Shown here: positions 13,650-37,781 of the stretch, one piece after another
How the letters are laid out: each line of letters begins with the position of its first letter
How positions within the stretch are numbered: the first letter of the stretch is position 1
IMG/VR virus record: IMGVR_UViG_3300034063_000636
Span: 44,215 to 108,214 of that record
Direction: 5' to 3' (one strand)
Source of the DNA: a virus
DNA: 64,000 nucleotides
The notes under the pieces: model-generated
The model's input: the letters and a program-made list of their open reading frames with translations, nothing else
Database searches by the model: none
What the model was told of the DNA's origin: nothing
Translations under genes and position numbers: made by a program

Positions 13650-16499
13650 ATGGGATATATACCAAGAACAATTTTTGAGCCTTCTATTCGACGCCAGTAC
13701 GAGGACGTTGGGCTACAAAGAACACTCGGGTTCGTTAACGATGACATGCAAACGTCATTTCAAGACAATGAGTCGCAAAGAGCCCAGTATACTCGCTTCA
13801 TGCGAAATCAAGAAATCACATTTGTTTCAAATGGTTTATGTCCAGACGCTAATGCAAATATTTTCTTCGATAAGGTCAACGTAAATCGCTTTACGCAAAA
13901 GGCGAACAAACTGACTGTGACGAATATGTCAGTGCCGTTCTTTCAAGATGAAGAAATTATCAATTCAACAACTAATGCGTACGCAAAAGTTCTAACATCT
14001 TCGAATAACTTCGTTTATGTTAATGAAAACTTTATTAATGTGAATATTGCTCCATATGGATCTAACTCATTGAGTACAACCACAGGAGTTAATTTAACTG
14101 TGGTTTATGAAGATGACGTCATCTATCAAACATCATCTAACAATTATTCTGGTCCAATTACTTTTGCTGGAACTGTTGAGCGTTACGAAAGAACAACCAA
14201 TCAACATGCCTATCTTGTAATCAAGCCTATTGCTGGATCATTTAGAAAATTCTCAGCCAATTCAGTAATTTTCTTTAGAGACGATAACTCAAAGAGAGTG
14301 AATGTTGCTGCAGTTCAAACAGCAGGCAACAATTTCCCAGCAGGATCAACAATCTATAGTAAGCGAGATATTACAAAAACAGCAAACGTTGCTTCGCATA
14401 ATCATTACTCTGGTGTAGTGTCGTATGCAAGCAGCAATAGCACAACTGAGATTCATCTATCTGGAAATGTTGCTCCTGCTGTTGGTGAGACACTTAGAAT
14501 TGCCTCAGGAGCTGGTATTGCTTCTGAAAGAACAATCAATAGCGTTTCTTCAAATGGATTTATGGTCACATTGAATGCTGCAGTGTCAGTAACATCCAAC
14601 TCCAAATATTCTTATGGAAAGCATGAAGTTGATGATTTTGGTGTTCTTGCTGGTTTGTTCCATATTCCAGAAGTTTCTGATGCGTATTTCTCAGCTGGCA
14701 AGAGACTTCTTACGATCACTGACGCTGCATCTAGCGACAGTACAGATTATAAGATGAGAGCATTTAACTATTACTCTGTAGTGGGTAATATGGGTCTCAT
14801 GTCTGATTATGCAAGAGTCGCATATGACACAATTGCGCCTTCGAAAGAAGTTGCACTTAATGCTAATGACATTTTAAAGAATAATAGAAAGTTCTTCCCA
14901 CTTTCTCAAACATTCTTTACTCCATCATCATCAAATACTCACTCAGATGGCATCACATCAGAATTTAACGTACTGCAAATTAGTGGTATTGATTTGTTCT
15001 TTGCTGAGAAACCAACCAGTGGTGATTTACAGCTTCCTGTAAAAGTTACGATCAATGAAGTGGAAAACGATCTTCCATCTACGAAGGTTCTTGGTCAAAG
15101 CATCGTCGAAGCAAAAGATATTAATACCTCATTGATTCCAGACTCATCTCAGATTACAACAGTGACAACATTTAGATTCTCTCCACCAGTCATCGTGAAG
15201 CCATCTAAAGAGTATGCGATCACAGTGTCAACTTCTTCACCAGACTACGCATTGTTTGTTGCAGAAGTTGGTGGAGAAATTCTAGGAACAACTCCTGCAA
15301 GAAGAGTCTCAGAGCAACCATATATTGGAGATCTCTTCAAGGCGCAAAATGCATCAAATTGGTCACCAATCCCGAACGAGGATTTGATGTTCCGTGTTCG
15401 TTATGCAAATTGGAGTGGTGCAACATCAAATACGATCACCTTTGTTCCAGAGAATATTCTATCTAATGTTAATGTTGACTCTATTTTGATTCACAGCACA
15501 GATTATAATTTCAAGCCAACAAGCATCAATTATGCGTTTAAGACAACGAACATCGATGGATCGTTTGATGATGGTTGGAAAAATGTTAGACCAGGAAAGA
15601 TCTTTGACTTCAGCGAAGATTTTGAGACATCTACAAAATCATCTAATCGCAGAAGAAGAATCATTGCAGGTAATAATGAATCGCTACTTGTGAAGGCAGA
15701 TTTGTCAACTACTGATGAAAACATTGCACCATTGGTTGACATGGAAAGAATCAGTGCGGTTGCCTTTGAATATATTATCAATGATGCTGGTATTTCTGCA
15801 TCTGATATTACCTTTACAAATCTTGGTAGACATTCAAATGTGTCCAATATCACCATCACTTTCTCTGCACCTGATCGTTCAGACGGCGTGACTGCAAATG
15901 CTTATGTTGCTGCTCTTGTAAATGCAACTTCGTATGTGTCAAATACATTCCCTTCATATTCTGCCAATATTGCGATGATTGTAGTTGACGAACCAGGCTC
16001 TGGGTATTATACTGCTCCTACGATCACAATTTCTGAGGTCGGAAGTACAGATAATGCGACAGCTGTCGTTGCTGGTGAAAATGGAGCATCAGGTGGTAAC
16101 TGTAAGGCGAAGTATGTAACAAAAACAATTACTCTTGCTGACGGATTCGATGCTGGCGATATTCGAGTTTACTTGGATTGCAATCGCCCTGTTGGCACAG
16201 ATGTGAATGTTTATTATAAGGTCAAGTCTGGAGACGATACAGATCCATTCGAAAATAAAAAATGGCAACGTATGTCAAAAGTCAATGATAATTTCTCGAA
16301 GGATCAAAATCAGGTCATCGAGTTAGAATATCGTGCAAGTCTTGATGTAAATAGAGTTTCTTATGTTGAGAATGGCGTGACTTATCCGCTTGGTGGGAAG
16401 TTTAAATACTATGCAATCAAGATCGTGATGACTGCTGCCAGTTCATCTGTCATCCCTTATATCGCAAACTTTAGAGCAATTGCAACTCCTGCAGGTTGA
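13650..16499 (+). CDS. Large virion structural protein (VrlC/DUF4815-like, C-terminal part)
   Basis: PLSQTFF, IDLFFAEK, FRFSPPV, GDLFKAQNAS.W...EDLMF, KYVTKTITL and terminal FRAIA motifs. Confidence 0.7.
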   Translation: MGYIPRTIFEPSIRRQYEDVGLQRTLGFVNDDMQTSFQDNESQRAQYTRFMRNQEITFVSNGLCPDANANIFFDKVNVNRFTQKANKLTVTNMSVPFFQDEEIINSTTNAYAKVLTSSNNFVYVNENFINVNIAPYGSNSLSTTTGVNLTVVYEDDVIYQTSSNNYSGPITFAGTVERYERTTNQHAYLVIKPIAGSFRKFSANSVIFFRDDNSKRVNVAAVQTAGNNFPAGSTIYSKRDITKTANVASHNHYSGVVSYASSNSTTEIHLSGNVAPAVGETLRIASGAGIASERTINSVSSNGFMVTLNAAVSVTSNSKYSYGKHEVDDFGVLAGLFHIPEVSDAYFSAGKRLLTITDAASSDSTDYKMRAFNYYSVVGNMGLMSDYARVAYDTIAPSKEVALNANDILKNNRKFFPLSQTFFTPSSSNTHSDGITSEFNVLQISGIDLFFAEKPTSGDLQLPVKVTINEVENDLPSTKVLGQSIVEAKDINTSLIPDSSQITTVTTFRFSPPVIVKPSKEYAITVSTSSPDYALFVAEVGGEILGTTPARRVSEQPYIGDLFKAQNASNWSPIPNEDLMFRVRYANWSGATSNTITFVPENILSNVNVDSILIHSTDYNFKPTSINYAFKTTNIDGSFDDGWKNVRPGKIFDFSEDFETSTKSSNRRRRIIAGNNESLLVKADLSTTDENIAPLVDMERISAVAFEYIINDAGISASDITFTNLGRHSNVSNITITFSAPDRSDGVTANAYVAALVNATSYVSNTFPSYSANIAMIVVDEPGSGYYTAPTITISEVGSTDNATAVVAGENGASGGNCKAKYVTKTITLADGFDAGDIRVYLDCNRPVGTDVNVYYKVKSGDDTDPFENKKWQRMSKVNDNFSKDQNQVIELEYRASLDVNRVSYVENGVTYPLGGKFKYYAIKIVMTAASSSVIPYIANFRAIATPAG

Positions 16500-16501
16500 T
16501 C

Positions 16502-16726
16502 ATGTTAGTTAAGATAAAAGACAATGATGATCTTGCAAGAGATGTGAAGTCAAGAGCAATCTTGAATGTTAATAAAAACGTTTTGCTTAAAGATCAGATG
16601 TATCAAGAGAAACTAAAGAAACAACAAGAGGTAGAGTCCTCAATAAATACTCTCAGAGAAGAAGTATCTTCGATTAAAGGCGACATTTCTAAGATTCTAG
16701 AAATGTTGAGTTCCAGAGGTAAATAA
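16502..16726 (+). CDS. Small coiled-coil phage protein
   Basis: LARDVKSRAILN followed by a heptad segment (INTLREEVSSIKGDISKILEML). ATG at 16502 preferred over TTG at 16496. Confidence 0.75.
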   Translation: MLVKIKDNDDLARDVKSRAILNVNKNVLLKDQMYQEKLKKQQEVESSINTLREEVSSIKGDISKILEMLSSRGK

Positions 16727-17769
16727 TGGCGAACACAAATATTTCACATGTCCAATTAGTGAACACCTTTAATGAGTGGCGTGCAGCAACTAATGACTTA
16801 ATTGAAGATAGAAATATTCTTCGAAATGCTCATTATGTCAAAGATAATTCTTCTTTTGACATTGCAAACGGAACCATGACGATCAGCCGTTCAAGCAACG
16901 GCACAGTTCTAACAGTCGCAAACTCTGGTAACGTTGCTGTCGGTGGTTGGGTCAATGCAAATACTCTTGCAACAAACTCAGAACTCTGGTTTGGATTAAG
17001 AACTAGCGACATTGCTTCTGTCATTAAGATGACACAAGAGCCAGCAAATACTGTAGAGGCTGGAAACGCAACTTGGTATACTGCAAATCAGAAATCAAAT
17101 AATCCATATTACGGATTCACCTTCCACTCCAATGGCACAATGGTCATTGCGAATGAAGAGGAGAATGCAACTCAAGTGGTTGTCATCGGTGACTCTGCTT
17201 ACAATGTTTCTCCGACCAAAAATGGTACGATTTTTGGTGTCAGTACAATCGTTGGAACATCAGCACCAACAACAGGATATGAATCTGGTTGGCAACCCGT
17301 TCTAGACCTTCGAAGCAATTCTCTATTCATCATGCCAGTTGCTTCTGCAAATGCAGGCAATTGTTTGTATTACAACGTAACAACTGGCGAAATCACATAC
17401 TCAACTGCGCCAAGCGGTAATGTTCTTGCTGGTGATCCAATTCTAATCAACACTGCAGTTGATTCTGCAAACACTGTAAGACTAAATGTGTCAAACTGGT
17501 TCAAGTATACATTGACAGGATCATCTGGCAATCGTAATTTGACATTCACAAATCCTCCTGCTTCTGGCAATGCATATACGTTCACAATGATTGTGATTCA
17601 AGATGGAACAGGCGGTAAAACTCCAAATTGGACAAATACAGTGTATTGGGCTGGTGGACAAATTCCTCCGCCAACAACTGACGCAAGCGCACAGGATATC
17701 TGGACATTTACCACATATGATGGTGGAACAACATATATTGGCACACTTGCTGTTAAAGACGCGAGATAA
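16726..17769 (+). CDS. Tail fibre / adhesin stalk protein
   Basis: N-terminal NTFNEWR..TN motif; C-terminal domain (IQDGTGG..W...VYWAGG..P......DIWTF) resembles the C-terminus of 35757..37769. Confidence 0.7.
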   Translation: MANTNISHVQLVNTFNEWRAATNDLIEDRNILRNAHYVKDNSSFDIANGTMTISRSSNGTVLTVANSGNVAVGGWVNANTLATNSELWFGLRTSDIASVIKMTQEPANTVEAGNATWYTANQKSNNPYYGFTFHSNGTMVIANEEENATQVVVIGDSAYNVSPTKNGTIFGVSTIVGTSAPTTGYESGWQPVLDLRSNSLFIMPVASANAGNCLYYNVTTGEITYSTAPSGNVLAGDPILINTAVDSANTVRLNVSNWFKYTLTGSSGNRNLTFTNPPASGNAYTFTMIVIQDGTGGKTPNWTNTVYWAGGQIPPPTTDASAQDIWTFTTYDGGTTYIGTLAVKDAR

Positions 17770-17771
17770 TC

Positions 17772-19721
17772 ATGCCGAATAGTTTTGGCTTAAACAAAAC
17801 TTGGATTCCTGGTCCTTCCAGAGGAACAACGACATTCAATACTACTGGCAATATTAATATTGCTTATGGTAGAAATAAAACCACAGTTTCAGGTCGTGGT
17901 GGTTCTGGTTCAGGTGCTTCATACAACACTGTTCCAGGAACAACTAATCCCACTACATTTCCATACACACCAGCATCGTATAATACGGTTCCTGGAAATT
18001 TAAATCCAACAACTTATCCGTTTACTCCAGCATCATATAATACAGTGCCTGGAACGACAAATCCTACAACGTTTCCCTTTGTTCCTGCTAGTTATAATAC
18101 TGTGCCTGGAAATACAAATCCACCAAACTATCCTTACACACCAGATAGTTACAACACTGTTCCTGGAACAACCAATCCAACAGTGTATCCATATACTCCA
18201 GAAAGTTATAACACTGTTCCAGGAAATAGTAATCCGCCAAATTATCCATTTACTCCTGAATCATACAATACAGTGCCAGGAAACTTAAATCCAACCAATT
18301 ATCCATACACACCAGCTTCGTACAATACAGTTCCTGGAAACACTAATCCAACTAACTACCCATTCGTTCCTGCATCATATAATACTGTTCCTGGTAATTT
18401 GAATCCAACAGTGTATCCATATACACCAGAGAGTTACAACACTGTTCCTGGAAATACAAATCCAACAAACTATCCATATACACCAGCTTCCTATAATACT
18501 GTTCCTGGAAATACTAATCCAACTAACTATCCATATACCCCAGAAAGTTATAACACAGTTCCTGGAAATACAAATCCAACGAATTATCCGTACACTCCAG
18601 AGAGTTATAACACTGTAACAAACTATCCATATACTCCAGGCTCATATAACGCACCAACAGGTGTTAGTTGGAATTTGACTGCAATCGGACCAAGTTACGG
18701 TGGTGTTGCAACAATAATTGGTGACGGATTTGATACAAATTGCCCATCACCATATAGCACACCAACTCCGTTTGGTCCAGACGAATTCACATATGAATGT
18801 TTCCCAGCTGGAAATACTGAAAATCCTGCGAGTTATAACACAGTTACCAATTATCCATATACACCTGCGTCGTATAATACAGTTCCAGGAAATGTAAATC
18901 CAACCAATTATCCGTTTACCCCTGCATCGTACAATACAGTCCCAGGAAATTTAAATCCAACGAACTATCCTTATGTTCCTGCAAGTTATAACACTGTTCC
19001 TGGCAATTTAAATCCAACCAATTATCCATACACACCAGCATCGTATAATACAGTTCCTGGAAACTTAAATCCAACGAACTATCCTTATGTTCCTGCAAGT
19101 TATAACACTGTTCCAGGAAATGTAAATCCGACAGTGTATCCATATACTCCAGAAAGTTATAATACAGTTCCTGGTAACTTGAATCCGACTAATTATCCGT
19201 TTACTCCTGCATCGTATAATACGGTTCCTGGTAACAGCAATCCACCAACTTATCCATACACACCAGCGTCTTACAATACTGTTCCTGGGACAACAAATCC
19301 AACCAATTATCCGTATACACCAGCATCGTATAACACAGTATCAGGAAACTTAAATCCAACCAATTATCCATTCGTTCCTGCAAGTTATAACACGGTTCCA
19401 GGAACGACAAATCCACCGTCGTATCCATTCGTGCCTGCAAGTTATAATACTGTGCCAGGAACAACAAATCCAACAGTGTATCCATTCGTCCCTGCAAGTT
19501 ATAATACTGTGCCAGGAACAACAAATCCAACAGTGTATCCATTTACTCCAGGAGTTCCTGGAACACCAACAACTGTTCTTGGTGTATACTTCCCAGGCGG
19601 TGTTGCTGGCGTTGCTCCATATGTTCCAGAAACTGTAGTGAATTATTGGGACTATCCAGATAATGCGACCTATCCAGTCACTGTTCCAACAGGTGCATAC
19701 ATAGTAGTGAAGATTGAATAA
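17772..19721 (+). CDS. Pro/Tyr/Thr/Asn-rich symmetric tandem-repeat protein (putative hairpin fibre)
   Basis: 49 aa head + 12x19 aa + 13 aa + 63 aa unique core (2 Cys) + 13 aa + 12x19 aa + 55 aa tail = 649 aa. Confidence 0.85.
   Translation: MPNSFGLNKTWIPGPSRGTTTFNTTGNINIAYGRNKTTVSGRGGSGSGASYNTVPGTTNPTTFPYTPASYNTVPGNLNPTTYPFTPASYNTVPGTTNPTTFPFVPASYNTVPGNTNPPNYPYTPDSYNTVPGTTNPTVYPYTPESYNTVPGNSNPPNYPFTPESYNTVPGNLNPTNYPYTPASYNTVPGNTNPTNYPFVPASYNTVPGNLNPTVYPYTPESYNTVPGNTNPTNYPYTPASYNTVPGNTNPTNYPYTPESYNTVPGNTNPTNYPYTPESYNTVTNYPYTPGSYNAPTGVSWNLTAIGPSYGGVATIIGDGFDTNCPSPYSTPTPFGPDEFTYECFPAGNTENPASYNTVTNYPYTPASYNTVPGNVNPTNYPFTPASYNTVPGNLNPTNYPYVPASYNTVPGNLNPTNYPYTPASYNTVPGNLNPTNYPYVPASYNTVPGNVNPTVYPYTPESYNTVPGNLNPTNYPFTPASYNTVPGNSNPPTYPYTPASYNTVPGTTNPTNYPYTPASYNTVSGNLNPTNYPFVPASYNTVPGTTNPPSYPFVPASYNTVPGTTNPTVYPFVPASYNTVPGTTNPTVYPFTPGVPGTPTTVLGVYFPGGVAGVAPYVPETVVNYWDYPDNATYPVTVPTGAYIVVKIE
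17919..19553 (+). repeat. 57-bp coding tandem repeat, two arrays of 12 units
   Basis: Unit SYNTVPG(N/T)xNP(T/P)xYP(Y/F)(T/V)P(A/E), mostly diverged at synonymous sites; interrupted by the unique core at about 18642-18830. Confidence 0.95.
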
Positions 19722-19723
19722 AC

Positions 19724-19752
19724 TTGAAATTTTTTATAGATTGTAGTATAAT
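19724..19752 (+). promoter_or_regulatory. Sigma70-type promoter
   Basis: TTGAAA (19724-29), 17 bp spacer, TATAAT (19747-52); then GGAG RBS and ATG at 19776. Confidence 0.75.
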
Positions 19753-19775
19753 GATTTAAATCTTGGAGTTATATT

Positions 19776-20366
19776 ATGCCATCATTCACAAAGTACATAA
19801 AACCACTTCCTCAGTTTTGTATTGTTGATAATTATTTCACTGAAGAAGAAGTCGATAAAATTATTGATCTTGAAGAATTGCAAGAATTCAGTGAGGGTAA
19901 GATGGGAACTGGTCCATCAACAACCACTAATAAACAATATCGCGACAGTGACATTTCTTGGTTGAAATGGAGCCCAGATTCTAGATGGATATTTGATAAA
20001 TTTGGTTCATTGATGGGTCAAGTAAACCACTCTCACTTCATGTATGATATTGATGGTTTTGATGCGTTTCAATACACCAAGTATAAACCAAAGCAACATT
20101 ATAATTGGCACTTTGATGCCTTCACAGAATTTCATGGCTTCGAACGAAAGATTAGTGCAGTGGTAATTTTATCAGACCCCAAAAAATATTCTGGTGGAGA
20201 ATTTCAAATTGTTGCGGATGGAAATATAGAAAAACCGCACTCAATAAAACCACCAAAAGGTTCTGTAATATTCTTTGCTTCTTGGATGCCGCATAGAGTT
20301 GCGCCAGTTAAATCTGGAGTTCGTAAATCTTTGGTTGCTTGGATTATGGGTAAAAGAGTATGCTAA
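19776..20366 (+). CDS. 2OG-Fe(II) oxygenase, prolyl-4-hydroxylase-like
   Basis: HYNWHFD (HxD), RKIS.V..LSDP..Y.GGEF and MPHRVAPVKSGVRKSLVAW (distal His, 2OG-binding Arg). Confidence 0.88.
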   Translation: MPSFTKYIKPLPQFCIVDNYFTEEEVDKIIDLEELQEFSEGKMGTGPSTTTNKQYRDSDISWLKWSPDSRWIFDKFGSLMGQVNHSHFMYDIDGFDAFQYTKYKPKQHYNWHFDAFTEFHGFERKISAVVILSDPKKYSGGEFQIVADGNIEKPHSIKPPKGSVIFFASWMPHRVAPVKSGVRKSLVAWIMGKRVC

Positions 20367-21088
20367 ACAAATTGATTCGTGTTTTTAAAAATGATGTGAT
20401 TGAATTTTACTGTCACCCAAAGTTTGAGAATGTCATTCCTGAACCAAAGCCAGCAATCAAATATTTGCCTGAGTGGTTTAGAATTATTCCTCCAGTTTCA
20501 AAGACTCGGAGAGATGAATACAATGACTTTGCGATGAATGCTAAAAAGTGTTTCCCAATGATTGATGCAATGTCTTTGGGATATACAATACCATTGTGTG
20601 GTGATATTCATGTCATGGTCAATAACGATATGACAGAAATGAAGTATACAAGCCCACCAGAAATGAAATTGGCAGATAGCCATAACGTTGAACAAATTGG
20701 TGGAGAGTCAGCCCCAGGATTTCCAATCAATCCGATCAAGTTTATCAATTATTGGATTATTAAGACTGCTCCAGGCTGGTCGACATTGTTTATTCCTCCA
20801 ATTAATCATGTTGGAACTCCATTTACTTGTTTGGGTGGATTAGTTGACACTGATAGATATCCAAAGGAAGTTAATTTTCCAGCAATTTGGAATCAGCCTG
20901 GTTTTGATGGATTAATTCGTGCAGGAACTCCTCTGGTGACTGCAATCCCAATTAAGAGAAATTCATTTCCGAAAAAACCAAAAGTCAGAAAAATTAAAGA
21001 TAAAGAATTTAATGAGATTGAATTGATTCGAAAGAAACAAGTGACCAGAAAAAATGTATACACAAATGAATTGAGAGATGAACGATGA
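20360..21088 (+). CDS. Hypothetical protein, possible degenerate dUTPase-like fold
   Basis: KKCFPMIDAMSLGY, GGLVDTDRY and IRAGTPLVTAIP; paralogous to the next gene. Confidence 0.55.
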   Translation: MLNKLIRVFKNDVIEFYCHPKFENVIPEPKPAIKYLPEWFRIIPPVSKTRRDEYNDFAMNAKKCFPMIDAMSLGYTIPLCGDIHVMVNNDMTEMKYTSPPEMKLADSHNVEQIGGESAPGFPINPIKFINYWIIKTAPGWSTLFIPPINHVGTPFTCLGGLVDTDRYPKEVNFPAIWNQPGFDGLIRAGTPLVTAIPIKRNSFPKKPKVRKIKDKEFNEIELIRKKQVTRKNVYTNELRDER

Positions 21089-21903
21089 AATTTTTTGATT
21101 TTTTTAAACCTAAAGAAACATTTAATGATTCGATTGACGATGAGATTAAGGAAATCTCAAACACTTCTGTTGTTCAATCGACTATTGGTAGAAACAAGTT
21201 AGAATTTATCGATTCATCAGAACTCGTATTTGCTAGTTTACCAATTCAATTAGCAAAAGATGTTCCTGTAAACTCGCAAGCACATGTAGAAAAGCTCGGA
21301 AATAAGTTCACATTTCCAGTCTGCCCTGGCATGTTTGACTATTCGCGACTTGGCTACATTGTTCCAGCCTGGTCAGACTATCATTTTAAGATAAATAAAG
21401 CTGGATGTGCTGCATTAGTTGGTGGGGGACAAAAAGCATCTCCATTTAAGCCTCCAGTTCCGATGGCAACTGATGTTGTCGATGGTCTTTTTAAATTAAG
21501 CGACGGAATTCCACTTAAAACATATAATATCAATTCTCCTTGGAAAATATTTTCTTACGACAAAGATATATCAGCATTACTTCTTCCTGCTTGGTATCAT
21601 GCAGACGTAGAGTTTTTAGATAATTTTTATGTTTATCCTGGAGTTGTTGATTATAATACATTTCATACTATGAATGTCATTCTTTCTCCAAAAAGAAAGT
21701 GTGAGTATACGATTAAAGCGGGAGATCCTTTATTACACGTCATTCCGTTTTATAATAAACAAATTGAATGTGGTTATGGACCACCAAACATAGAACAAAA
21801 AAGCATATTATCATACGATCCTAAAATCCACGAAACGCAATTTTATCGAAAGAATCATATGATTAAAAAGAGTTTCGCACTAGAAGAAAGCAATAAAGAA
21901 TGA
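21085..21903 (+). CDS. Hypothetical protein, paralog of 20360..21088
   Basis: CPGMFDYSRLGY, PGVVDYN and IKAGDPLLHVIP align with the motifs of the upstream gene. Confidence 0.55.
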   Translation: MKFFDFFKPKETFNDSIDDEIKEISNTSVVQSTIGRNKLEFIDSSELVFASLPIQLAKDVPVNSQAHVEKLGNKFTFPVCPGMFDYSRLGYIVPAWSDYHFKINKAGCAALVGGGQKASPFKPPVPMATDVVDGLFKLSDGIPLKTYNINSPWKIFSYDKDISALLLPAWYHADVEFLDNFYVYPGVVDYNTFHTMNVILSPKRKCEYTIKAGDPLLHVIPFYNKQIECGYGPPNIEQKSILSYDPKIHETQFYRKNHMIKKSFALEESNKE

Positions 21904-22847
21904 AGATATTTGTAAGCATATGCTCATACAGAGACCCTCTGTTAGTATACACTCTAAAAGCATTAATGCAGACCAAGTCTGCAATTACAGAAGTTGTGTA
22001 CGGCATATTTGAACAAAATGAAAAAGAAAATAGTTTAGAAACTCTATTTCCAGATCTAGTCGCCAGAAGCGATGTAAAATATAAACGAATCGATCCACAA
22101 TACTCGGAAGGTGTTGGTTGGGCTCGAAATATTAATGCTCTCCAGTTAACTGACGAGGATTTTTATTATCAGATCGACTCTCACATGGTTTTCGATAAGA
22201 ATTGGGATCGCGATTTAATTAACGATTATAAAGAAGGCTGTAGAGCGATCGAGTCAAACAGAGTCATTATCAGTTCGAACTGTAAAAATTTCGAGATGGT
22301 CGATGGTAATGTCGTTTTAGAGCATGGCATGGACTATACATGCAGAGCAAGATTCTATCAGTTTAATCCAAATCTTTGGCTTTTTGCTCACGGCGAACAT
22401 ATTCCTCCAACTGAAACCGTGATGCCAGCGATACACATCTTTGCTGGAAATATGTTTACACACTCTGATTGGGTTCGAAATGTCGGAATCAATCCTAGAA
22501 TATTCTTTCATGGAGAGGAGCAAGCGATAACTCTCTCATCGTTTGCTGCAGGATATCGATTTTTCCACGGAAAGAGGATGTCGTGCTATCACTATAAAGG
22601 ATCTAATGAACATACATCAAAGCAGGACTTTAAACCTGTTGTTCCTTTAGAGATCATTGAAGAGAGAAAACGTAGATCAGAAATTGAATTTAGAGCATTT
22701 TTAGACTCTCTCGAGGACGATTTACTCGAGGAATACCGAGTCTACTCTGGCGTGAATTATATAAATAAGAAAATAGAAGAACGTGCCATAACCCGAGTGA
22801 TTAAACCAAGCATCGATATTGACTGGGAAGTAGGCGATTCTGAATAA
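21900..22847 (+). CDS. GlcNAc transferase, Gnt1/GT60-like (Skp1-hydroxyproline GlcNAc transferase family)
   Basis: IFVSICSYRDP, GVGWAR, YYQIDSHMVFDKNWD and FFHGEE match family motifs (IFVSIxSYRD, QIDSHMxF..WD, FxGEE). Confidence 0.85.
   Translation: MKIFVSICSYRDPLLVYTLKALMQTKSAITEVVYGIFEQNEKENSLETLFPDLVARSDVKYKRIDPQYSEGVGWARNINALQLTDEDFYYQIDSHMVFDKNWDRDLINDYKEGCRAIESNRVIISSNCKNFEMVDGNVVLEHGMDYTCRARFYQFNPNLWLFAHGEHIPPTETVMPAIHIFAGNMFTHSDWVRNVGINPRIFFHGEEQAITLSSFAAGYRFFHGKRMSCYHYKGSNEHTSKQDFKPVVPLEIIEERKRRSEIEFRAFLDSLEDDLLEEYRVYSGVNYINKKIEERAITRVIKPSIDIDWEVGDSE
22760..22767 (+). promoter_or_regulatory. Canonical T4 late promoter TATAAATA
   Basis: Exact TATAAATA inside the 3' end of the GT gene, about 105 bp upstream of the next structural gene. 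Confidence 0.6.
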
Positions 22848-22872
22848 AAAACATAGTTCATAGAGAATTTTC

Positions 22873-23205
22873 ATGCCATACGCAGAGTTAACGGTTGATC
22901 AGGGCACAACTTTCGAAACTTCTATAGATTTAGTTGGCGATGATGGCGCTGCGATCAATATCGCAGGGTGCGTTTTCTTGGGTCAAGTTCGCAAATCTTA
23001 TTATTCTTCCAATGTAACTGCAAATCTGACAATTACCACTTTAAGTAATACAGGTGGAAATCTAATCATGTCTTTAAATTCAGCAGTCACTGCAAACATT
23101 AGAGCAGGTCGTTATCTTTATGACGTAAAGATGACTGATACAGATAACATAACAACTCGAGTCGTAGAAGGTATTCTAACTGTGACACCACAGGTGTCCA
23201 GATAA
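22873..23205 (+). CDS. Small virion structural / fibre-attachment beta-sandwich protein
   Basis: DQGTTF...QVRKSY...GRYLYDV...RVVEG..TVTPQVS pattern; coupled to the fibre gene by a TAATG overlap. Confidence 0.7.
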   Translation: MPYAELTVDQGTTFETSIDLVGDDGAAINIAGCVFLGQVRKSYYSSNVTANLTITTLSNTGGNLIMSLNSAVTANIRAGRYLYDVKMTDTDNITTRVVEGILTVTPQVSR

Positions 23206-26200
23206 TGAAGATAACGATTACGAATAATAATCAGATCGGTAAGGTTACTTTCGGCAAAGTGACGAGAGTCGGCGATCTATATGCAAACGATATTCTAGAT
23301 CTTATAAACACAGTCGTTTATAGATCAGGCTCAACGATGACAGGCAACTTAAATGTTGCTGCGACAATTATTACGCAAAACGTAATTCCGTCTGTCAATA
23401 ATACATACAATCTTGGTAGTCCAACTTATCGATACAAAGATGCATACTTTGGTGGTAACACTGTATACATCGGCGACTCTATACTATCAGCACAAGCAAA
23501 CAGTCTTTTAACAAATACATTTATTGCTACAACATCATTTGTTAGTGGTGGCTTAAACGTTCTAGACCAAGCAAATGCTGCATATGCTGAAGCCAACTTA
23601 AAACTCGGTCTTGGTGGCGGTACAATTACAGGAAGTCTTACTGTAACTGGAAACCTCGAAGTTCTCGGTAATACAACAACACTTAATGTTGAAACATTGT
23701 CACTCGAAGACAATGAAATTATTCTCAATTCAAATGTAACTGGTCCACCATTACTTGACTCGTTCATAACGATCAATCGTGGATCAATGACAAATGCTGT
23801 TCTTAAGTGGGATGAAAGCACTGATCAATGGAAGTGGTCGGATGGCAATGGCGTATATTATGCACTAGATTCTTCTTTGGGCGCATATGCTCAAGCCAAC
23901 GGAGCGTATGCACAAGCCAATGGTGCCTATGCTCAAGCAAACGGAGCCTATTCTCAAGCCAATGGTGCATTTGCGCAAGCAAACGGAGCATATGCTCAGG
24001 CTAACGGTGCTTACGCCCAAGCAAACGGAGCGTATGCGCAAGCAAATGCAGCAAGCGATAATGCAAACACGAGAGTTCTAAAAGCTGGCGATACAATGAC
24101 TGGTCAGCTGAACATCAGTTCAGGCGGTCTTGTTGTCACTGGCAATATTGTTACAACTGGTGCAAGTGGCGACATAACTGGCGTCAATACCATTTATGCT
24201 GGAACATTCTCAACAACAGCTGGATTAAATGTTACTGCTCAAGCAGCAAATGCTTACGAGCAAGCCAATAATGCTAGAACAACAGCAAATGGTGCATACT
24301 TACAAGCCAACGGCGCTTATGCACAGGCTAATGGGGCTTACGCTCAGGCAAATGGCGCATACGCTCAGGCAAATGGTGCTTATGCGCAAGCCAATGGTGC
24401 CTATGCACAAGCGAATGGTGTTTATGCTCACGCTAATGGAATTTATGATGTTGCAAACGCTGCATATGCTCAAGCCAATGCAGACTATCAACCTGCTGTA
24501 ACAAGATTTGATGTGACCTCTAGCGGAACATCAGCATACAGATTCGATCAATATGGCTCAATCGTTGACGATCCAACACTTTATGTTCGTGCTGGTGAAA
24601 CTCTTGCATTCAATTTGAATGTAGTTGGGCATCCATTCATGATCCGCCAATCAAATGGTGGAGCAAATTATAATACTGGATTGACTCACGTTGAAACTAC
24701 AGGTGTAATTTCTACAGGGGCGAGTGCACAAGGTAAAACAACAGGTGTTCTTTATTGGAAAGTTCCATTTGAACTTCAAGGCAACACTTACGTTTATCAA
24801 TGTCAAGTGCATTCTGCGATGGTTGGCAATATTGTTATTGAGCCACCATCAACGATCATTTATGCTCAAGCGAATGTTGCATTTGATACTGCCAATGGTG
24901 CGTACTCACAAGCAAATGGTGCATATAGCCAAGCCAATGGCGCTTATGCACAAGCCAACGGTGCGTATGCGCAGGCAAATGGTGCCTATGCTCAAGCCAA
25001 CTCAGCATATGCTCATGCAAACATAGTTTACGCTCAAGCCAACGCAAGTTTTGATCAAGCGAATACTGCTAGAACAACAGCAAATGATGCATATGAGCAA
25101 GCAAACACTGCAAGAAGCACAGCCAACGATTCATATGCTCAAGCGAATACGGCACGTGATACTGGCAACAACGCATATGCTCAAGCAAACACCGCTCGCG
25201 ATACAGCAAATGATTCTTACGCTCAAGCAAACACCGCTAGAGACACTGGTAACAATGCTTATCTGCAAGCCAATACTGCTAGAGACACTGGCAACAACGC
25301 ATATGCTCAGGCGAATACCGCTAGAGATACTGGTAACGATGCATATAGTCAAGCGAACACTGCTCGCAATACTGCTAATGATGCATACTTACAAGCCAAT
25401 AATGCATACGCTGAAGCCAATATAAAACTTAACATCTCTGGTGGATCGATCACTGGTGATTTGATCGTTTCTGGAAATCTAGAAGTTCTAGGAAACAGCA
25501 CAACATTAAATGTTGAAACTCTTGCAATTGAAGACAATGAGATTATTCTCAACTCAAATGTAACTGGATCACCAACACTTGATGGCTTTATTACAATCAA
25601 TCGTGGCAGCAACACAAATGCTTCGATTAAGTGGGATGAAAATACGAATCAGTGGAAGTGGACGGATGGTGATACATTCTTCTATGCATTTGACTCTGCT
25701 TTAGATGCTTATGCTCAAGCAAATACTGCACGTGATCAAGCCAATACCGCTAGAGAAACTGGCAATGATGCCTATGGTCAAGCCAACACTGCAAGAACAA
25801 CAGCAAACGACGCTTACCTTCAAGCCAATACTGCTCGCGACCAGGCAAATACGGCACGTGATACTGGCAACAATGCTTACGCTCAAGCGAATACAGCTCT
25901 TGATACCGCTAATGGTGCATACGCTCAAGCAAATGGCGCCTATGCTCAAGCCAACGGAGCGTATGCACAAGCAAATCTAGCATTTGGTCAAGCCAATGGT
26001 GCATACGCTCAAGCAAATGGTGCTTATGCGCATGCTAATATTGTTTACGCTCAAGCAAATGCTGCATTCAATCAGGCAAATACTGGAAATGACTCTGCAA
26101 ATGCAGCCTATGCACAAGCAAATACTGCACGCGATACTGGCAACAATGCATATGGACAAGCGAACACAGCTCGCACAACTGCCAATGACGCATATGCTCA

Positions 26201-29200
26201 AGCAAATACTGCTCTAGATACGGCAAACGGCGCATATGCCCAAGCAAATGGGGCTTATGCTCACGCAAATATTGTATATGCTCAAGCAAATACGGCTCGT
26301 GATACTGCAAATGCCGCTTATGGTCAAGCAAATGGTGCATTCGATCAAGCGAACGCTGCTTATAATCAAGCAAACACTGCCAGAACAACTGCGAATGACG
26401 CTTATGGTCAGGCAAATAGCGCATTTAATCAAGCGAATGCAGCATATGACAAAGCCAATACTGCTCTAGACACAGCGAATGGAGCATATGCCCAAGCAAA
26501 TGGAGCCTACGCTCACGCTAACATTGTCTACGCTCAAGCCAATAATGCATACGATACAGCCAATCTAAAACTTAATATTGCTGGCGGTACAATTAATGGT
26601 TCATTGAACGTTTCTGGTAATTTAAGCATAACTGGTAATACAACATATTACAATGTGGCAACTTATGCTGTTGATGACCCATTAATTTATCTTGGCGCAA
26701 ATAATATTCTGAATGATATTGTTGATATAGGATTTATTGCCACGAAAAATACCAGCGGCAACTTGAGTCATACTGGGTTTGCTCGCGATGCTGGAGATGC
26801 TACTTGGTATTTGTTTGATAATCTATTAGATTCTGGTCACCAAAATAACATAGTCGACTTCGCAAATACCACACTCGCAACACTTCGCGCAAACATTGCT
26901 GCAAATAGCATACTCTTGATGGGTAATGTTGTTGCGACTCAAGCAAATCTAACACTCGCTCATAATCAAGCCAATACTGCAAATAATACTGCGAATGGTG
27001 CATATTCTCAAGCCAATGGAGCCTATGCTCACGCTAATATAGTTTATGCACAAGCCAATGCTGCATTTAATCAAGCCAACGCTGCTTATGATAAGGCAAA
27101 TGGCGCATTTGATACTGCTAATGGTGCATATTCTCAAGCGAACGGTGCTTATGCCCACGCGAATATTGTTTATGCTCAGGCTAACGCTGCATATGATAAT
27201 GCAAATACCAGAGTTCTAAAATCTGGCGATACAATGACAGGCAATCTCAATGTGAGTGCCTTCATCATTACTAATAATGTTCAGCCAAATTTAAATGTTA
27301 CATACGACCTTGGTTCACCAACCAAGAGATATAAGAATCTTTATCTTTCAAATAATGCACTACATTTGGGTGATGCGGTAATCACATCAAATGGATCAAC
27401 ACTAGTTGTTTCTGGTGTTGAAATTGATGGCAGTGGAAATCTAATCGCTGCGTTTGATTCTTATGACCAAGCAAATACTGCTAGAGATACTGCCAATGCT
27501 GCATACAATCAAGCAAACGGTGCGTTCAATCAGGCGAACGGTGCATATGCGCATGCTAACATAGTATATGCTCAGGCAAATGCTGCTTATGACCAAGCCA
27601 ATACTGCTCGTGGAACTGCTAACGATGCGTATGCTCAAGCAAATACTGCACGTGATACTGGTAACAATGCATATGCTCAAGCCAATACTGCTCGAGACAC
27701 AGCAAACGATGCTTATGGTCAAGCAAATACCGCCAGAACAACCGCGAATGATTCTTATAATCAAGCAAACACAGCGCGCACTACAGCCAATGATGCTTAT
27801 GGTCAGGCAAACACAGCGCGTGGAACTGCGAATGATGCATATGGTCAAGCAAATGCTGCTTATCTCCAAGCCAATAATGCATATGATGAGGCAAATCTAA
27901 AAGTTAATATTTCTGGTGGAACCATTTCTGGTGATTTGGTTGTTTCTGGTAATCTTTCTGTACTCGGAAATAGCACCACACTTAATGTTGAAACTTTAAA
28001 AATTGAAGATAACGAAATTATCCTCAATTCGAATGTTACTGGATCGCCAACTCTTGATAGTTTCATCACAATCAATCGCGGCAGTTCAACAAACGCTGTC
28101 ATTAAGTGGGATGAGAATACTGATCAATGGAAGTGGTCAGACGGCGACACATTCTTCTATGCGTTTGATTCTGCGTTGGATGCTTATGCTCAAGCAAATA
28201 CGGCACGCGCGACCGCCAATGATGCATATGGACAAGCCAACGTTGCTCGTGCGACTGCCAATGACTCGTATTTGCAAGCGAACACTGCTCGCGATACTGC
28301 AAATGCATCTTACGATCAAGCGAATACTGCAAGAACTACTGCCAATGACGCATACGGTCAAGCGAATACAGCTCGTACGACCGCTAACGATTCTTATGCT
28401 CAAGCCAATACTGCAAGAAATACGGCTAACGACTCTTACGCTCAGGCGAATACTGCTCGAACAACAGCTAATGATGCTTATGCTCAGGCGAACACAGCAC
28501 GCACTACTGCGAATGATTCCTATGCGCAGGCAAACACTGCTCGTAATACAGCCAATGATTCTTACGCTCAAGCAAATACCGCTCGCGCTACGGCAAATGA
28601 TGCATACGGACAAGCGAACGCTGCGTATAACACAGCAAATACTGCAAACGCAACGGCAAATCTAGCATATGCTCAAGCCAATTCAAATTACCAACCTGCA
28701 GTCACACGACTCAACGTAACAAACTCTGGCTTCTCTGCATATTTACTTGATCAATATCCTGGCAATAATCCAACTGTATACGTTAGAGGCGGTGAAACAT
28801 TAGCGTTCGATCTAAACGTTTCTGGTCACCCATTCATGATTCGTCAGTCAAGCGGCGGAGCAAATTATAACACTGGATTGACTCACGTTTCTTCAACTGG
28901 TGTTGTTTCTACTGACGGTAGCGCTCAGGGGCAAGTTTCAGGAACATTGTATTGGAAGGTTCCGTATAATATTGTTGGCAACACTTATGTTTATCAGTGT
29001 TCAATTCATGGTGGTATGGTTGGCAACATTGTTATTGAACCATCAGTGATTGTTGCTTATGCTCAAGCGAATGCAGCATTTGATACCGCCAACGGTGCAT
29101 ATGCCCATGCAAATATTGTCTATGCACAAGCAAATGCTGCATACAATGATGCAAACGGCGCATATGCGCAAGCCAACGGTGCTTATGCTCAAGCAAATGG

Positions 29201-30617
29201 AGCTTATTCTCAAGCCAATGGTGCCTATGCACAGGCTAACGGTGCATACGCTCAAGCGAATATCGTTTATGCTCAAGCAAATGCAGCGTATGAAAAGGCA
29301 AATGCGCCAATCACCGTTAAGGAAATTTATGCTGGCAATTCAACAGTAGTCAATACTTACACCAATATCAATACAATTCAATTTGATTCTGACTCTGGAA
29401 TGGCAGTTGTAAATGCTGCTTCGAACACAGTCACGATTCAGTTGAATAGTACATTCAAGAATTGGAACGTAGATGGAAATGCTGGACTTGTTGCAGTTGG
29501 TCTTGATACTGTAAACTTTATTGCTGGCAGTGGAATTTCGATTGCTGCAAACAATAATGCATCACCAAAATCTATTACATTCACCAGTACTGGTGGTGGC
29601 GGTGGCGCAGCTAACGTTATCGTTAAAGACGAAGGAACAACTCTTACATCAGCTGTAACTTCGATTGACTTTACTGGTGGTGGTGTAACTGCAACAGCAA
29701 GTGGAAGTAATGTAACAATTTCTGTTCCAGTTGGATTGTCAAATACAATCATCAAAACTGTTTCTTATACTTCCACAAATGCTGCAGCAAATTTAACGTA
29801 TGCTCTACCATTAACACCATCAGATCCTTCATATATCTTTGTGATTAAGAACGGTATTGTTCTTACACCAAATACGGATTATAGCCTCAGTGGAAATACA
29901 CTTACTGTAATCGAATCTGGTGCGGCAAACGATGCGATCGAAGTTCGTTATTTTGATCAAGTTAATATTGTAGAGTATCCAAATACAAAAATTGAAGTTG
30001 ATTCAAACACTGTCGCTTCGCAAACGAATACATTCTATGTCACGAGTAATGTTGCTGCAATAAGCCGACTCTCTATCTCTAAGAATGGTTTGTTGCTCAC
30101 ACCAAATCTACACTTCACAGTGACTGGAAATACTGTAACGTTAAATACAGCTGCTGAGATTAACGATGTATTGACCTTTACACATATTCGTGATTTGGGA
30201 CCATTAGAAGGTTCTGGTTTAACAGAATACAACTATAACACAAGCACATCTTCTGTTGAAACAGTCGATTCTTGGTCTAAGAATACCTATCGCAGCGGTA
30301 AGTATCAAGTTCAAGTTGAAAGTGGCGCTGGATATTATGCCACTGAAATCATGATTATTCATGATGACTCTACTACAAATTTAATACAGTATGGAACATC
30401 TTCTTTTGGTTCGAATGTTGGCGTGTTTTCTTCTGACATAAGCGGAAGCAACGTTCGACTATTGTTTACTGCAACTGATTCCACTTCGTTTGTAACTTAT
30501 AATAGAGTTCTTTTGACAAAGAGATCTTCTGAATCGTTACCGACAGATTTGATGACTGGAAGCGATGCGTATGATCTCATGTTGACTCTACCATTTAACC
30601 CAACAGACCTCAATTAA
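23205..30617 (+). CDS. Giant coiled-coil fibre protein (2470 aa) with repeated beta modules and two cupredoxin-like domains
   Basis: Long ANGAYAQ/ANTARDT heptad tracts; three close copies of a GNLxVLGNxTTLNVETL..EDNEIILNSN..RG..W module; two GHPF...C-x2-H-x2-M domains. Confidence 0.85.
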   Translation: MKITITNNNQIGKVTFGKVTRVGDLYANDILDLINTVVYRSGSTMTGNLNVAATIITQNVIPSVNNTYNLGSPTYRYKDAYFGGNTVYIGDSILSAQANSLLTNTFIATTSFVSGGLNVLDQANAAYAEANLKLGLGGGTITGSLTVTGNLEVLGNTTTLNVETLSLEDNEIILNSNVTGPPLLDSFITINRGSMTNAVLKWDESTDQWKWSDGNGVYYALDSSLGAYAQANGAYAQANGAYAQANGAYSQANGAFAQANGAYAQANGAYAQANGAYAQANAASDNANTRVLKAGDTMTGQLNISSGGLVVTGNIVTTGASGDITGVNTIYAGTFSTTAGLNVTAQAANAYEQANNARTTANGAYLQANGAYAQANGAYAQANGAYAQANGAYAQANGAYAQANGVYAHANGIYDVANAAYAQANADYQPAVTRFDVTSSGTSAYRFDQYGSIVDDPTLYVRAGETLAFNLNVVGHPFMIRQSNGGANYNTGLTHVETTGVISTGASAQGKTTGVLYWKVPFELQGNTYVYQCQVHSAMVGNIVIEPPSTIIYAQANVAFDTANGAYSQANGAYSQANGAYAQANGAYAQANGAYAQANSAYAHANIVYAQANASFDQANTARTTANDAYEQANTARSTANDSYAQANTARDTGNNAYAQANTARDTANDSYAQANTARDTGNNAYLQANTARDTGNNAYAQANTARDTGNDAYSQANTARNTANDAYLQANNAYAEANIKLNISGGSITGDLIVSGNLEVLGNSTTLNVETLAIEDNEIILNSNVTGSPTLDGFITINRGSNTNASIKWDENTNQWKWTDGDTFFYAFDSALDAYAQANTARDQANTARETGNDAYGQANTARTTANDAYLQANTARDQANTARDTGNNAYAQANTALDTANGAYAQANGAYAQANGAYAQANLAFGQANGAYAQANGAYAHANIVYAQANAAFNQANTGNDSANAAYAQANTARDTGNNAYGQANTARTTANDAYAQANTALDTANGAYAQANGAYAHANIVYAQANTARDTANAAYGQANGAFDQANAAYNQANTARTTANDAYGQANSAFNQANAAYDKANTALDTANGAYAQANGAYAHANIVYAQANNAYDTANLKLNIAGGTINGSLNVSGNLSITGNTTYYNVATYAVDDPLIYLGANNILNDIVDIGFIATKNTSGNLSHTGFARDAGDATWYLFDNLLDSGHQNNIVDFANTTLATLRANIAANSILLMGNVVATQANLTLAHNQANTANNTANGAYSQANGAYAHANIVYAQANAAFNQANAAYDKANGAFDTANGAYSQANGAYAHANIVYAQANAAYDNANTRVLKSGDTMTGNLNVSAFIITNNVQPNLNVTYDLGSPTKRYKNLYLSNNALHLGDAVITSNGSTLVVSGVEIDGSGNLIAAFDSYDQANTARDTANAAYNQANGAFNQANGAYAHANIVYAQANAAYDQANTARGTANDAYAQANTARDTGNNAYAQANTARDTANDAYGQANTARTTANDSYNQANTARTTANDAYGQANTARGTANDAYGQANAAYLQANNAYDEANLKVNISGGTISGDLVVSGNLSVLGNSTTLNVETLKIEDNEIILNSNVTGSPTLDSFITINRGSSTNAVIKWDENTDQWKWSDGDTFFYAFDSALDAYAQANTARATANDAYGQANVARATANDSYLQANTARDTANASYDQANTARTTANDAYGQANTARTTANDSYAQANTARNTANDSYAQANTARTTANDAYAQANTARTTANDSYAQANTARNTANDSYAQANTARATANDAYGQANAAYNTANTANATANLAYAQANSNYQPAVTRLNVTNSGFSAYLLDQYPGNNPTVYVRGGETLAFDLNVSGHPFMIRQSSGGANYNTGLTHVSSTGVVSTDGSAQGQVSGTLYWKVPYNIVGNTYVYQCSIHGGMVGNIVIEPSVIVAYAQANAAFDTANGAYAHANIVYAQANAAYNDANGAYAQANGAYAQANGAYSQANGAYAQANGAYAQANIVYAQANAAYEKANAPITVKEIYAGNSTVVNTYTNINTIQFDSDSGMAVVNAASNTVTIQLNSTFKNWNVDGNAGLVAVGLDTVNFIAGSGISIAANNNASPKSITFTSTGGGGGAANVIVKDEGTTLTSAVTSIDFTGGGVTATASGSNVTISVPVGLSNTIIKTVSYTSTNAAANLTYALPLTPSDPSYIFVIKNGIVLTPNTDYSLSGNTLTVIESGAANDAIEVRYFDQVNIVEYPNTKIEVDSNTVASQTNTFYVTSNVAAISRLSISKNGLLLTPNLHFTVTGNTVTLNTAAEINDVLTFTHIRDLGPLEGSGLTEYNYNTSTSSVETVDSWSKNTYRSGKYQVQVESGAGYYATEIMIIHDDSTTNLIQYGTSSFGSNVGVFSSDISGSNVRLLFTATDSTSFVTYNRVLLTKRSSESLPTDLMTGSDAYDLMLTLPFNPTDLN
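23880..29300 (+). repeat. 21-bp period coding heptad repeats (several tracts)
   Basis: Degenerate gcNtaYgcNcaRgcNaaY-type units encoding AYAQANG / ARDTAND. Confidence 0.9.
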
Positions 30618-33005: not shown

Positions 33006-33017
33006 CAGGACATTACA

Positions 33018-33344: not shown

Positions 33345-33345
33345 T

Positions 33346-35718: not shown

Positions 35719-35726
35719 TTGCGCAG

Positions 35727-35733
35727 ATAAATA
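35727..35733 (+). promoter_or_regulatory. T4-type late promoter box
   Basis: Intergenic ATAAATA upstream of ATG 35757. Confidence 0.6.
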
Positions 35734-35756
35734 TTCAATAAATCTAAGAGTGTTAA

Positions 35757-37769: not shown

Positions 37770-37781
37770 GGTGAATAAACT

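Follow-up and report, generated by a model that had tools for sequence, protein, structure and literature searches.

Does a tailed phage hydroxylate and glycosylate its own fibre, and if so, at which residues? The question is raised by positions 17772-22847 of a 64,000-nucleotide stretch (hereafter, the window) of IMG/VR virus record IMGVR_UViG_3300034063_000636, where a proline-rich repeat protein is followed directly by four genes encoding a 2-oxoglutarate- and Fe(II)-dependent (2OG-Fe(II)) oxygenase, two paralogous proteins, which we denote DUFa and DUFb, and a glycosyltransferase (GT) of family GT60. The record spans 108 kb, with an estimated completeness of 63%, and the window forms its final 64 kb; genes for T4-type baseplate hub and wedge proteins precede an extended series of fibre genes there, with all of these genes on the plus strand. 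The source is an uncultured T4-like phage, and the four-gene cassette lies within its tail-fibre module. Judging from sequence comparisons and structural models, we consider it slightly better than an even proposition that the phage hydroxylates and glycosylates its own fibre by means of this tailoring operon. The original prediction, made from the sequence letters alone, had described a Pro-rich repeat protein and a separately promoted operon of four genes, and all these elements are in place:

17772..19721, plus strand: Tyr-Asn (YN)- and Pro-rich repeat protein of 649 amino acids (aa), the presumed substrate
17772-17918, plus strand: conserved N-terminal domain of the repeat protein
17919-18641, plus strand: repeat block 1 of the repeat protein, twelve 19-aa units
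18642-18830, plus strand: Cys-containing central domain of the repeat protein
18831-19553, plus strand: repeat block 2 of the repeat protein, thirteen units
19554-19718, plus strand: conserved C-terminal domain of the repeat protein
19724..19752, plus strand: sigma70-type promoter-like site, TTGAAA-17 nt-TATAAT, in the 54-nt gap 5' of the oxygenase gene
19776..20366, plus strand: 2OG-Fe(II) oxygenase of the prolyl 4-hydroxylase (P4H)/PKHD type, 196 aa (PF13640, phrog_61)
20360..21088, plus strand: DUFa, with a predicted dUTPase fold, DUF6065-like, 242 aa (phrog_7084, 7.5e-48), the constant neighbour of the oxygenase
21085..21903, plus strand: DUFb, paralogue of DUFa, 272 aa (phrog_7084, 2.1e-17), which occurs solely together with the GT60 gene
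21900..22847, plus strand: GT60-family glycosyltransferase with a GT-A fold, 315 aa (PF11397 'GlcNAc')

A search of IMG/VR with a GT profile retrieved 67 loci through the GT alone (the single-sequence locus search with the GT gave no result), and ~58 of the 67 retain the gene order oxygenase-DUFa-DUFb-GT60 within the same module of fibre genes. The open reading frame (ORF) or ORFs directly upstream of the cassette always share the N-terminal, central and C-terminal domains of the window protein and differ in their repeat units; this architecture, with other repeat units whose periods range from 7 to 36 aa, is found in 70 distinct proteins adjoining the cassette. Adjacency to the repeat proteins holds despite rearranged gene order: in loci L007-L012 and L066, an oxygenase paralogue and GT60 are followed by the repeat protein and then by oxygenase, DUFa and DUFb; in L062-L065, the repeat protein comes first, followed by GT60, oxygenase, DUFa and DUFb; and L043 retains the adjacency, too. 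To avoid selection on the cassette, we used the upstream 949-aa baseplate/fibre protein as the profile for a second sample of the lineage, drawing on 80 of the 205 IMG/VR contigs that bear this protein and obtaining 79 loci, 61 of them distinct. The full interval up to the conserved small gene that follows the cassette is visible in 32 distinct phages of this cassette-blind sample; 26 of the 32 lack both a YN-rich protein and the cassette, five carry the two together, and L147 (on the same contig as L005) has the cassette and a repeat family member just under the threshold for YN enrichment. The co-occurrence across related contigs that the original prediction had proposed as a check is therefore strongly positive, with the cassette present in 6/6 phages that carry such a repeat protein and in 0/26 that do not, in a table that is not phylogenetically independent because common descent accounts in part for synteny among phages of a single lineage.

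A reduced version of the cassette, namely, a pair of oxygenase and DUFa homologues (DUFa'-oxygenase') without DUFb or GT60, lies 3' of collagen-like proteins in what we call type B loci:

L043:1864-6955 (L043/L154), L077:3-3856, L159 and L169: reduced-pair loci with collagen-like proteins that carry the window-type N-terminal domain

These collagen-like proteins have a Gly value at lag 3 of 0.71-0.79 and contain 28-57 N-P-G triplets, as well as G-N-P and G-N-K triplets. For the collagen-like protein of L140, which has another N-terminus, no oxygenase was found in 10 kb of downstream sequence. The reduced-pair oxygenases form a separate clade (support 99/98) together with the oxygenase of a DUF6065-oxygenase pair from Dehalococcoidia. 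The existence of the reduced form in collagen-like loci suggests that oxygenase and DUFa are the core pair, so that GT60 and DUFb would be an addition tied to Tyr-containing repeats. N-P-G is the classic X-Pro-Gly hydroxylation context, and its presence in the collagen-like partners provides the strongest indirect reason to regard the oxygenases as prolyl hydroxylases.

The separate promoter claimed in the original prediction proved to be conserved. The site in the window matches 11/12 consensus positions and is the best in 16400-23400; a site with at least 10/12 matches precedes the oxygenase in 30/48 distinct related loci, several of them with 12/12, compared to 3% of control windows. Consecutive cassette genes overlap by 7, 4 and 4 nt, so that the four are translationally coupled genes of a separately promoted operon. 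Conservation of the sigma70-like promoter would thus allow expression of the enzymes apart from that of the late structural genes. The T4 late-promoter consensus TATAAATA occurs at 22760-22767, in the 3' end of the GT60 gene and ~105 nt before the fibre-module gene that starts at 22873, a position that would let late transcription restart 3' of the cassette; sites matching TATAAATA number just two in the window, which is chance level.

The enzyme families named in the original prediction were recovered by hidden Markov model searches, which assigned the oxygenase to PF13640 (E 1.4e-18, 68.1 bits against a cut-off of 27; phrog_61, 3.9e-40) and the GT to PF11397, which represents CAZy GT60 in Pfam (E 8e-32; 111.5 bits, cut-off 21). 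In the oxygenase, the iron triad H112-x-D114...H173 is present along with R183; across 28 sequences, H112, D114 and R183 are invariant and H173 is nearly so. Sequence matches in the Protein Data Bank (PDB) include 3dkq, 4iw3 and 5c5t, the last of which we take to be the viral collagen prolyl 4-hydroxylase (vCPH) of chlorovirus PBCV-1. The likeness to PhyA and other PHD enzymes that had been supposed gave way to a different ranking, the nearest solved relatives being PKHD-type YbiX/PiuC-like proteins (4e-8), Pseudomonas PPHD (5.5e-7) and vCPH (5c5t, 6e-5), and then algal P4H. The best NCBIfam match, NF003974 (PKHD-type YbiX/PiuC, PRK05467), is below the equivalog cut-off (66.5 bits against 143), such that YbiX/PiuC is the nearest NCBIfam family, yet the oxygenase is not a member; in the literature on PiuC/YbiX, we found no substrate. 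By sequence, the oxygenase is placed in the P4H/PKHD superfamily, an assignment that does not reveal its substrate.

Additional oxygenase-like genes were noticed around the cassette and elsewhere in the fibre module. At L008:9426-9998 and L009:9426-9998, an oxygenase paralogue located directly 5' of GT60 has the distal iron-binding His replaced by Ala or Ser, and is probably a pseudo-enzyme. Within the window, PF13640 is also matched at 46244-46819, among the fibre genes; the gene at 57369-58610 fuses an N-terminal part matching phrog_2954 to a phrog_61 oxygenase; and 45244-45852 is oxygenase-like solely by a His-rich motif judged by eye. Genes resembling 2OG-Fe(II) oxygenases abound in the fibre module as a whole.

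The GT contains the strings IFVSICSYRD, QIDSHMVF..WD and FHGEE by which it had originally been singled out, and D93-S94-H95, a DxH-type metal motif, is invariant in 21 GT sequences. The PF11397 match of the GT was also recovered on the genome, and all 120 GT homologues among the matches listed carry PF11397. Searches of PDB sequences with the GT, both single-sequence and profile, returned nothing, and NCBIfam gave no match; among isolate phages, there are just four distant matches, in Xanthomonas and Stenotrophomonas jumbo phages. The AlphaFold2 (AF2) model of the GT (predicted local distance difference test (pLDDT) score of 91) adopts the GT-A fold, and its best fold matches are mucin-type polypeptide N-acetylgalactosamine (GalNAc)-transferases (Foldseek, 2e-11), with VIA-align Z scores of 21.9 and 20.0 for these ppGalNAc-transferases compared to at most 17.6 for other GT-A enzymes (ppGalNAc-T1: Z 21.9, root-mean-square deviation (rmsd) 3.5, 272 aligned residues). 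That the model is closest to polypeptide GalNAc-transferases therefore argues for a peptide acceptor and points to an enzyme resembling polypeptide O-linked N-acetylhexosamine (HexNAc) transferases. GT60 itself includes both the hydroxyproline (Hyp)-specific Gnt1 and a Thr-directed trypanosome polypeptide N-acetylglucosamine (GlcNAc)-transferase (PMC6939170). In L060 and L061, a GT60 homologue stands alone, without an oxygenase, 3' of a 2042-aa Thr-rich fibre.

The two genes between the oxygenase and the GT had been called paralogous unknowns, and the paralogy is confirmed, both products matching phrog_7084. DUFa and DUFb are 19% identical and share invariant F16, C64, G74, N172, P191, P197 and Y234. 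The AF2 model of DUFa (pLDDT 92.5) is predicted to have the dUTPase/dCTP-deaminase beta-barrel fold: dUTPases, dCTP deaminases and viral dUTPase-related proteins fill the first 22 VIA-align rows, led by 3h6x as the best solved match (Z 10.9, rmsd 3.3, 120 aligned), and Foldseek against PDB and BFVD agrees. A cupin-type oxygenase identity, which we considered for the paralogues, was rejected on the result of the fold search. Neither paralogue matches Pfam dUTPase at E <= 0.01. DUFa contains G-L-V-D-T-D-x-Y, which we take to be dUTPase-motif-III-like and of which DUFb keeps V-D alone; the remaining motifs are not evident by eye. Against DUF6065 (PF19541), DUFa scores 22.8 bits with a cut-off of 26.6 and DUFb has no match, and Atlas structure neighbours named DUF6065 reach a TM score of 0.82; DUFa thus appears to be a below-threshold relative of DUF6065. 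NCBIfam gave no match for either paralogue, and a search for fused, longer forms of DUFa found none, which is weak evidence. DUFa homologues with 27-36% identity are present in ~50 haloarchaeal Hafunaviridae and three cyanophages. Bacterial DUF6065 contexts are mostly uninformative, with the exception of one Dehalococcoidia locus that carries the DUF6065-oxygenase pair mentioned above; in that metagenome-assembled genome (MAG), the pair (L087:5989-7303) adjoins two genes for TldD/PmbA-type metallopeptidases and two unknown ORFs, and the locus may be a peptide-tailoring locus.

The presumed substrate has no match in Pfam, PHROG, NCBIfam or the ESM Atlas. Its composition is 19% P, 17% T, 15% N and 12% Y, and Tandem Repeats Finder (TRF) delineates 57-nt arrays at 17928-18600 and 18846-19549. 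Across the 23 full 19-aa units, S1, Y2, N3, T4, V5, G7, N10, P11, P15 and P18 are invariant, P6 is present in 22, and positions 8, 9, 12, 13, 16, 17 and 19 are variable, such that each window unit offers the Pro sites V-P-G, N-P-T, Y-P-Y and T-P-A. In a close relative (L100:14123-15958), whose upstream 949-aa protein is 100% identical to that of the window, the repeat protein has one 19-aa unit fewer per block and reshuffled variable positions, with the N- and C-terminal domains differing by one or no changes. The loss of units and the reshuffling therefore suggest fast turnover of repeats, which would indicate rapid gain, loss or conversion of repeat units. The repeat protein is probably a fibre-associated virion protein, distal or adhesin-like.

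Comparison among the relatives complicates the choice of the modified residue. Pro had been proposed as the feature linking the substrates, a role in which Tyr-Asn has replaced it: YN is the sole invariant element across repeat types and is 2-9x over-represented (in 44/44 family members first examined), whereas some cassette-bearing relatives have Pro in just 11-46% of units. Among the 70 distinct proteins, the share of YN-to-YN units that contain Pro ranges from 0.11 (L062) to 1.00, with the window protein at the upper, Pro-rich end. Nearly all of the 70 contain Ser or Thr in at least 80% of their units, and Tyr amounts to 7-17% in GT60-linked substrates versus 0% in the oxygenase-only, collagen-like ones. 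We set aside YN as a necessary site of modification; the dipeptide may instead have a purely structural role in the fold of the repeats.

In the explanation that we favour, the operon would be transcribed from its own sigma70-type promoter within the late tail-fibre module, and the repeat protein whose gene lies directly upstream would be the target of its products in the host cytoplasm. The oxygenase, together with DUFa, would hydroxylate side chains of the repeats, with Pro as the most likely target, and the GT60 enzyme, the gene of which appears always to travel with DUFb, would add an O-linked HexNAc (probably GlcNAc from UDP-GlcNAc) to the same protein, using as acceptor either the new hydroxyl or Thr, Ser or Tyr. 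The outcome would be a hydroxylated, glycosylated and fast-evolving fibre surface. We infer the role of the repeat protein as substrate, the modified residues, the sugar, the order of the steps and the roles of DUFa and DUFb.

In addition to the shared ancestry of the co-occurring loci, several observations weigh against this explanation. Most repeat units of L062, L064 and L017 lack Pro, yet the oxygenase is kept, and the nearest characterised relatives of the oxygenase have unknown or non-fibre substrates. Homologues of DUFa adjoin ribonucleotide reductase in L070 (Halophage HF1, 48119-49003) and L071 (cyanophage S-RIM4, 158324-159118), which hints at a nucleotide-related role, and no GT60 or annotated oxygenase lies near the DUFa homologues of the haloarchaeal viruses and S-RIM4. 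The evidence on residues, namely, YN, the loss of Pro, Thr-directed GT60 members and lone GT60, is mixed as well, and we therefore rate fibre tailoring in general as a little more probable than its negation. Within fibre tailoring, the two routes outlined below, a strict passage from Hyp to GlcNAc and two independent modifications, appear about equally likely.

The first of these routes is the one proposed in the original prediction, a Skp1-like pathway in which 4-hydroxyproline would be formed in the repeats and alpha-GlcNAc would then be added by the GT60 enzyme specifically to that residue, and we regard it as a tentative possibility. Two enzyme families like those of the phage, represented by PhyA and Gnt1, act in this order on Skp1 of Dictyostelium and Toxoplasma (PMC6939170; PMC3515798). 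The phage genes for oxygenase and GT60 share one operon, each 19-aa window unit contains four invariant or near-invariant Pro, and in L007-L012 an oxygenase paralogue directly precedes GT60. The resemblance extends from the superfamilies (PF13640-type oxygenase and PF11397/GT60) to the presumed use of cytoplasmic, soluble enzymes and the proposed placement of hydroxylation and O-GlcNAc on a protein. The Skp1 pathway differs in that Skp1 and the later transferases (PgtA and others) have no counterpart in the phage operon, in targeting a single Pro where the phage repeat protein offers tens of candidate sites, and in lacking the two dUTPase-fold proteins that the phage adds; the phage oxygenase is nearer to PKHD/YbiX than to the PHD type, any orthology to PhyA and Gnt1 is putative, and the phage family data speak partly against Hyp dependence. 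Thus, several cassette-linked proteins lack Pro in 54-89% of units, the GT60-adjacent oxygenase of L008 and L009 lacks the distal His, GT60 occurs alone 3' of the Thr-rich fibre in L060 and L061, and the collagen-like substrates have an oxygenase but no GT. What endures of the predicted two-step modification is that the fibre is likely tailored by hydroxylation and O-HexNAc; the order of Hyp followed by GlcNAc is not supported in the form put forward, in view of the Thr-directed members of GT60, the presence of Ser/Thr in nearly all units and GT60 genes without an oxygenase. Given the loss of Pro in relatives, the Thr-directed GT60 and the lone GT60, a dependence of glycosylation on hydroxylation is therefore a putative relationship.

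Equally tentative is the second route within fibre tailoring, in which the two modifications would be independent: GT60 would place HexNAc directly on Thr/Ser, as in mucin-type glycosylation, or on Tyr, and the oxygenase would separately hydroxylate Pro or another residue for stability, as in collagen and extensins. The precedent within GT60 is the Thr-directed polypeptide GlcNAc-transferase of Trypanosoma cruzi, an alpha-GlcNAc-transferase (PMC6939170), which, like the GT27 polypeptide GalNAc-transferases that are the best structural matches of the phage GT model, combines a GT-A fold and a DxH motif with a repeat- and Thr-rich acceptor. These are Golgi membrane proteins, in GT27 with a lectin domain, whereas the phage GT, at 315 aa, is soluble and encoded in an operon with an oxygenase. 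The availability of Ser/Thr in nearly every unit is consistent with direct glycosylation, as are the GT60 gene that lacks an oxygenase in L060 and L061, the type B loci with an oxygenase but no GT60, and the Tyr content that separates the GT60-linked substrates from the oxygenase-only ones. However, the close packing of overlapping genes in one operon speaks for coupled steps, and the collagen-like proteins contain Ser and Thr, yet have no GT.

A further reading concerns the mode of recruitment and is, in our estimation, unlikely, if well short of far-fetched: the shared N-terminal domain might be a leader or docking module recognised by the dUTPase-fold paralogues as adaptors, with DUFa recruiting the oxygenase and DUFb recruiting GT60, in a tailoring of a virion adhesin resembling that of ribosomally synthesized and post-translationally modified peptides (RiPPs), the chemistry of which may be at Tyr-Asn rather than Pro. 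If this is the case, any hypervariable repeat cloned behind the N-terminal domain would be tailored.

Still less probable is that the modified site is Tyr-Asn itself, through hydroxylation of Asn or Tyr followed by glycosylation, or through chemistry performed by the dUTPase-fold proteins, and not Pro. This site is common to all repeat types, from 7-aa to 36-aa periods, its over-representation extends to every family member first examined, and it persists in proteins that lost Pro. The PF13640-type enzymes with known substrates, however, act on Pro or Lys; YN could equally be structural, for example, an Asn ladder or an aromatic stack of a repetitive fold; and the type B collagen-like substrates lack any Tyr, yet oxygenase and DUFa are kept.

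Least probable of all is that the cassette is a mobile island in the fibre module whose targets are nucleotides, DNA or a glycan of the host envelope, on the model of phage DNA hypermodification, an idea that draws on the dUTPase/dCTP-deaminase fold of DUFa, the ribonucleotide reductase beside its homologues in HF1 and S-RIM4 and the early-type promoter, but is at odds with the P4H/PKHD type of the oxygenase (no nucleic-acid oxygenase family was matched in Pfam), a GT that is most like polypeptide transferases, the presence and absence of the cassette tracking the repeat protein, and the lack of a Pfam dUTPase match or of canonical motifs evident by eye other than the motif-III-like one.

Returning to tailoring of the fibre by the operon, other known systems share parts of the arrangement. 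Chlorovirus PBCV-1 likewise encodes a P4H-type enzyme and Pro-rich repeats that are its likely substrates; vCPH (5c5t) and its peptide substrates were reportedly described by Eriksson in 1999 and Longbotham in 2015. PBCV-1 differs from the present phage in being a eukaryotic virus without a linked GT60, dUTPase-fold partners or adjacency of the substrate gene. Mimivirus L230, a lysyl hydroxylase/glucosyltransferase, is said, in work attributed to Luther et al. in 2011, to modify the virus's own collagen-like proteins. Mimivirus thus hydroxylates and then glycosylates its own repetitive fibre proteins, and the type B loci described here pair a collagen-like protein with an oxygenase; the mimivirus enzyme differs in being one bifunctional protein of another GT family that targets Lys and transfers glucose. 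Mycobacteriophage GTs decorate the phages' own virion proteins (Freeman et al. 2023, PMC10527164, as cited in PMC12801897) and belong to other GT families, target capsid and tail-tube proteins and come with neither a hydroxylase nor an adjoining repeat substrate gene. Plant extensins and other hydroxyproline-rich glycoproteins consist of Pro-, Tyr-, Ser- and Thr-rich repeats that are hydroxylated by P4H and O-glycosylated (PMC7960765), and the Y-P-Y in each window unit is reminiscent of their Y-x-Y motifs; they differ in passing through the secretory pathway and in the use of arabinose/galactose and other GT families, with nothing to suggest common substrate ancestry. None of the systems compared unites a P4H-type oxygenase, GT60, two dUTPase-fold proteins and an adjacent hypervariable fibre substrate, and we found no description of an oxygenase-GT60-dUTPase-fold cassette in the literature on phage P4H/GT60, PF11397 or DUF6065.

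Aquatic T4-like phages encode many 2OG-Fe(II) oxygenases, and we know of no assigned substrates for them. The locus described here offers a concrete, directly testable candidate enzyme-substrate pair, backed by co-occurrence. Confirmation of the proposed function would make the repeat protein the first tail-fibre protein of a phage for which hydroxylation and glycosylation by phage-encoded enzymes has been demonstrated, with a bearing on host recognition, on resistance to proteases and grazing, and on how hypervariable fibres in metagenomes are interpreted. DUF6065-like dUTPase-fold proteins would thereby gain a first functional setting, and a compact system of bacterial type would become available for the production of repeat proteins that are hydroxylated and glycosylated.

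The gene upstream of the repeat protein belongs to the same module:

16726..17769, plus strand: tail-fibre protein of 347 aa, residues 241-342 of which match the tail-fibre families phrog_9017, phrog_7760 and phrog_22179

Its stop abuts the start of the repeat-protein gene, and a homologue of variable length lies directly 5' of the repeat protein in related loci. Against isolate phages, neither megablast of the region nor tblastn of the repeat protein gave a match, and psbA was not found in the 108 kb of this 63%-complete record. On a 4.4-kb contig (L086) binned in a Chitinophagaceae (Bacteroidota) MAG, the cassette is present in full, with a DUFa 70% identical to that of the window; this copy is either a binning artefact or a faint hint at the host.

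Downstream of the cassette, 23205-30617 encodes a 2470-aa fibre protein with long runs of short Ala/Asn/Gly-rich units (ANGAYAQ, AQANTARDTANDAY) and repeated globular inserts between them. Five Gly-rich (33-35% G) fibre-like proteins follow at 31159-44953, where GC content reaches 0.48-0.52 with a strong positive GC skew. These proteins are of a poly-Gly type, not collagen-like, with Gly at lag 3 of ~0.52 in the two that were measured, and three of them are each preceded by an ORF of 108-111 aa (33018, 38905 and 41994).

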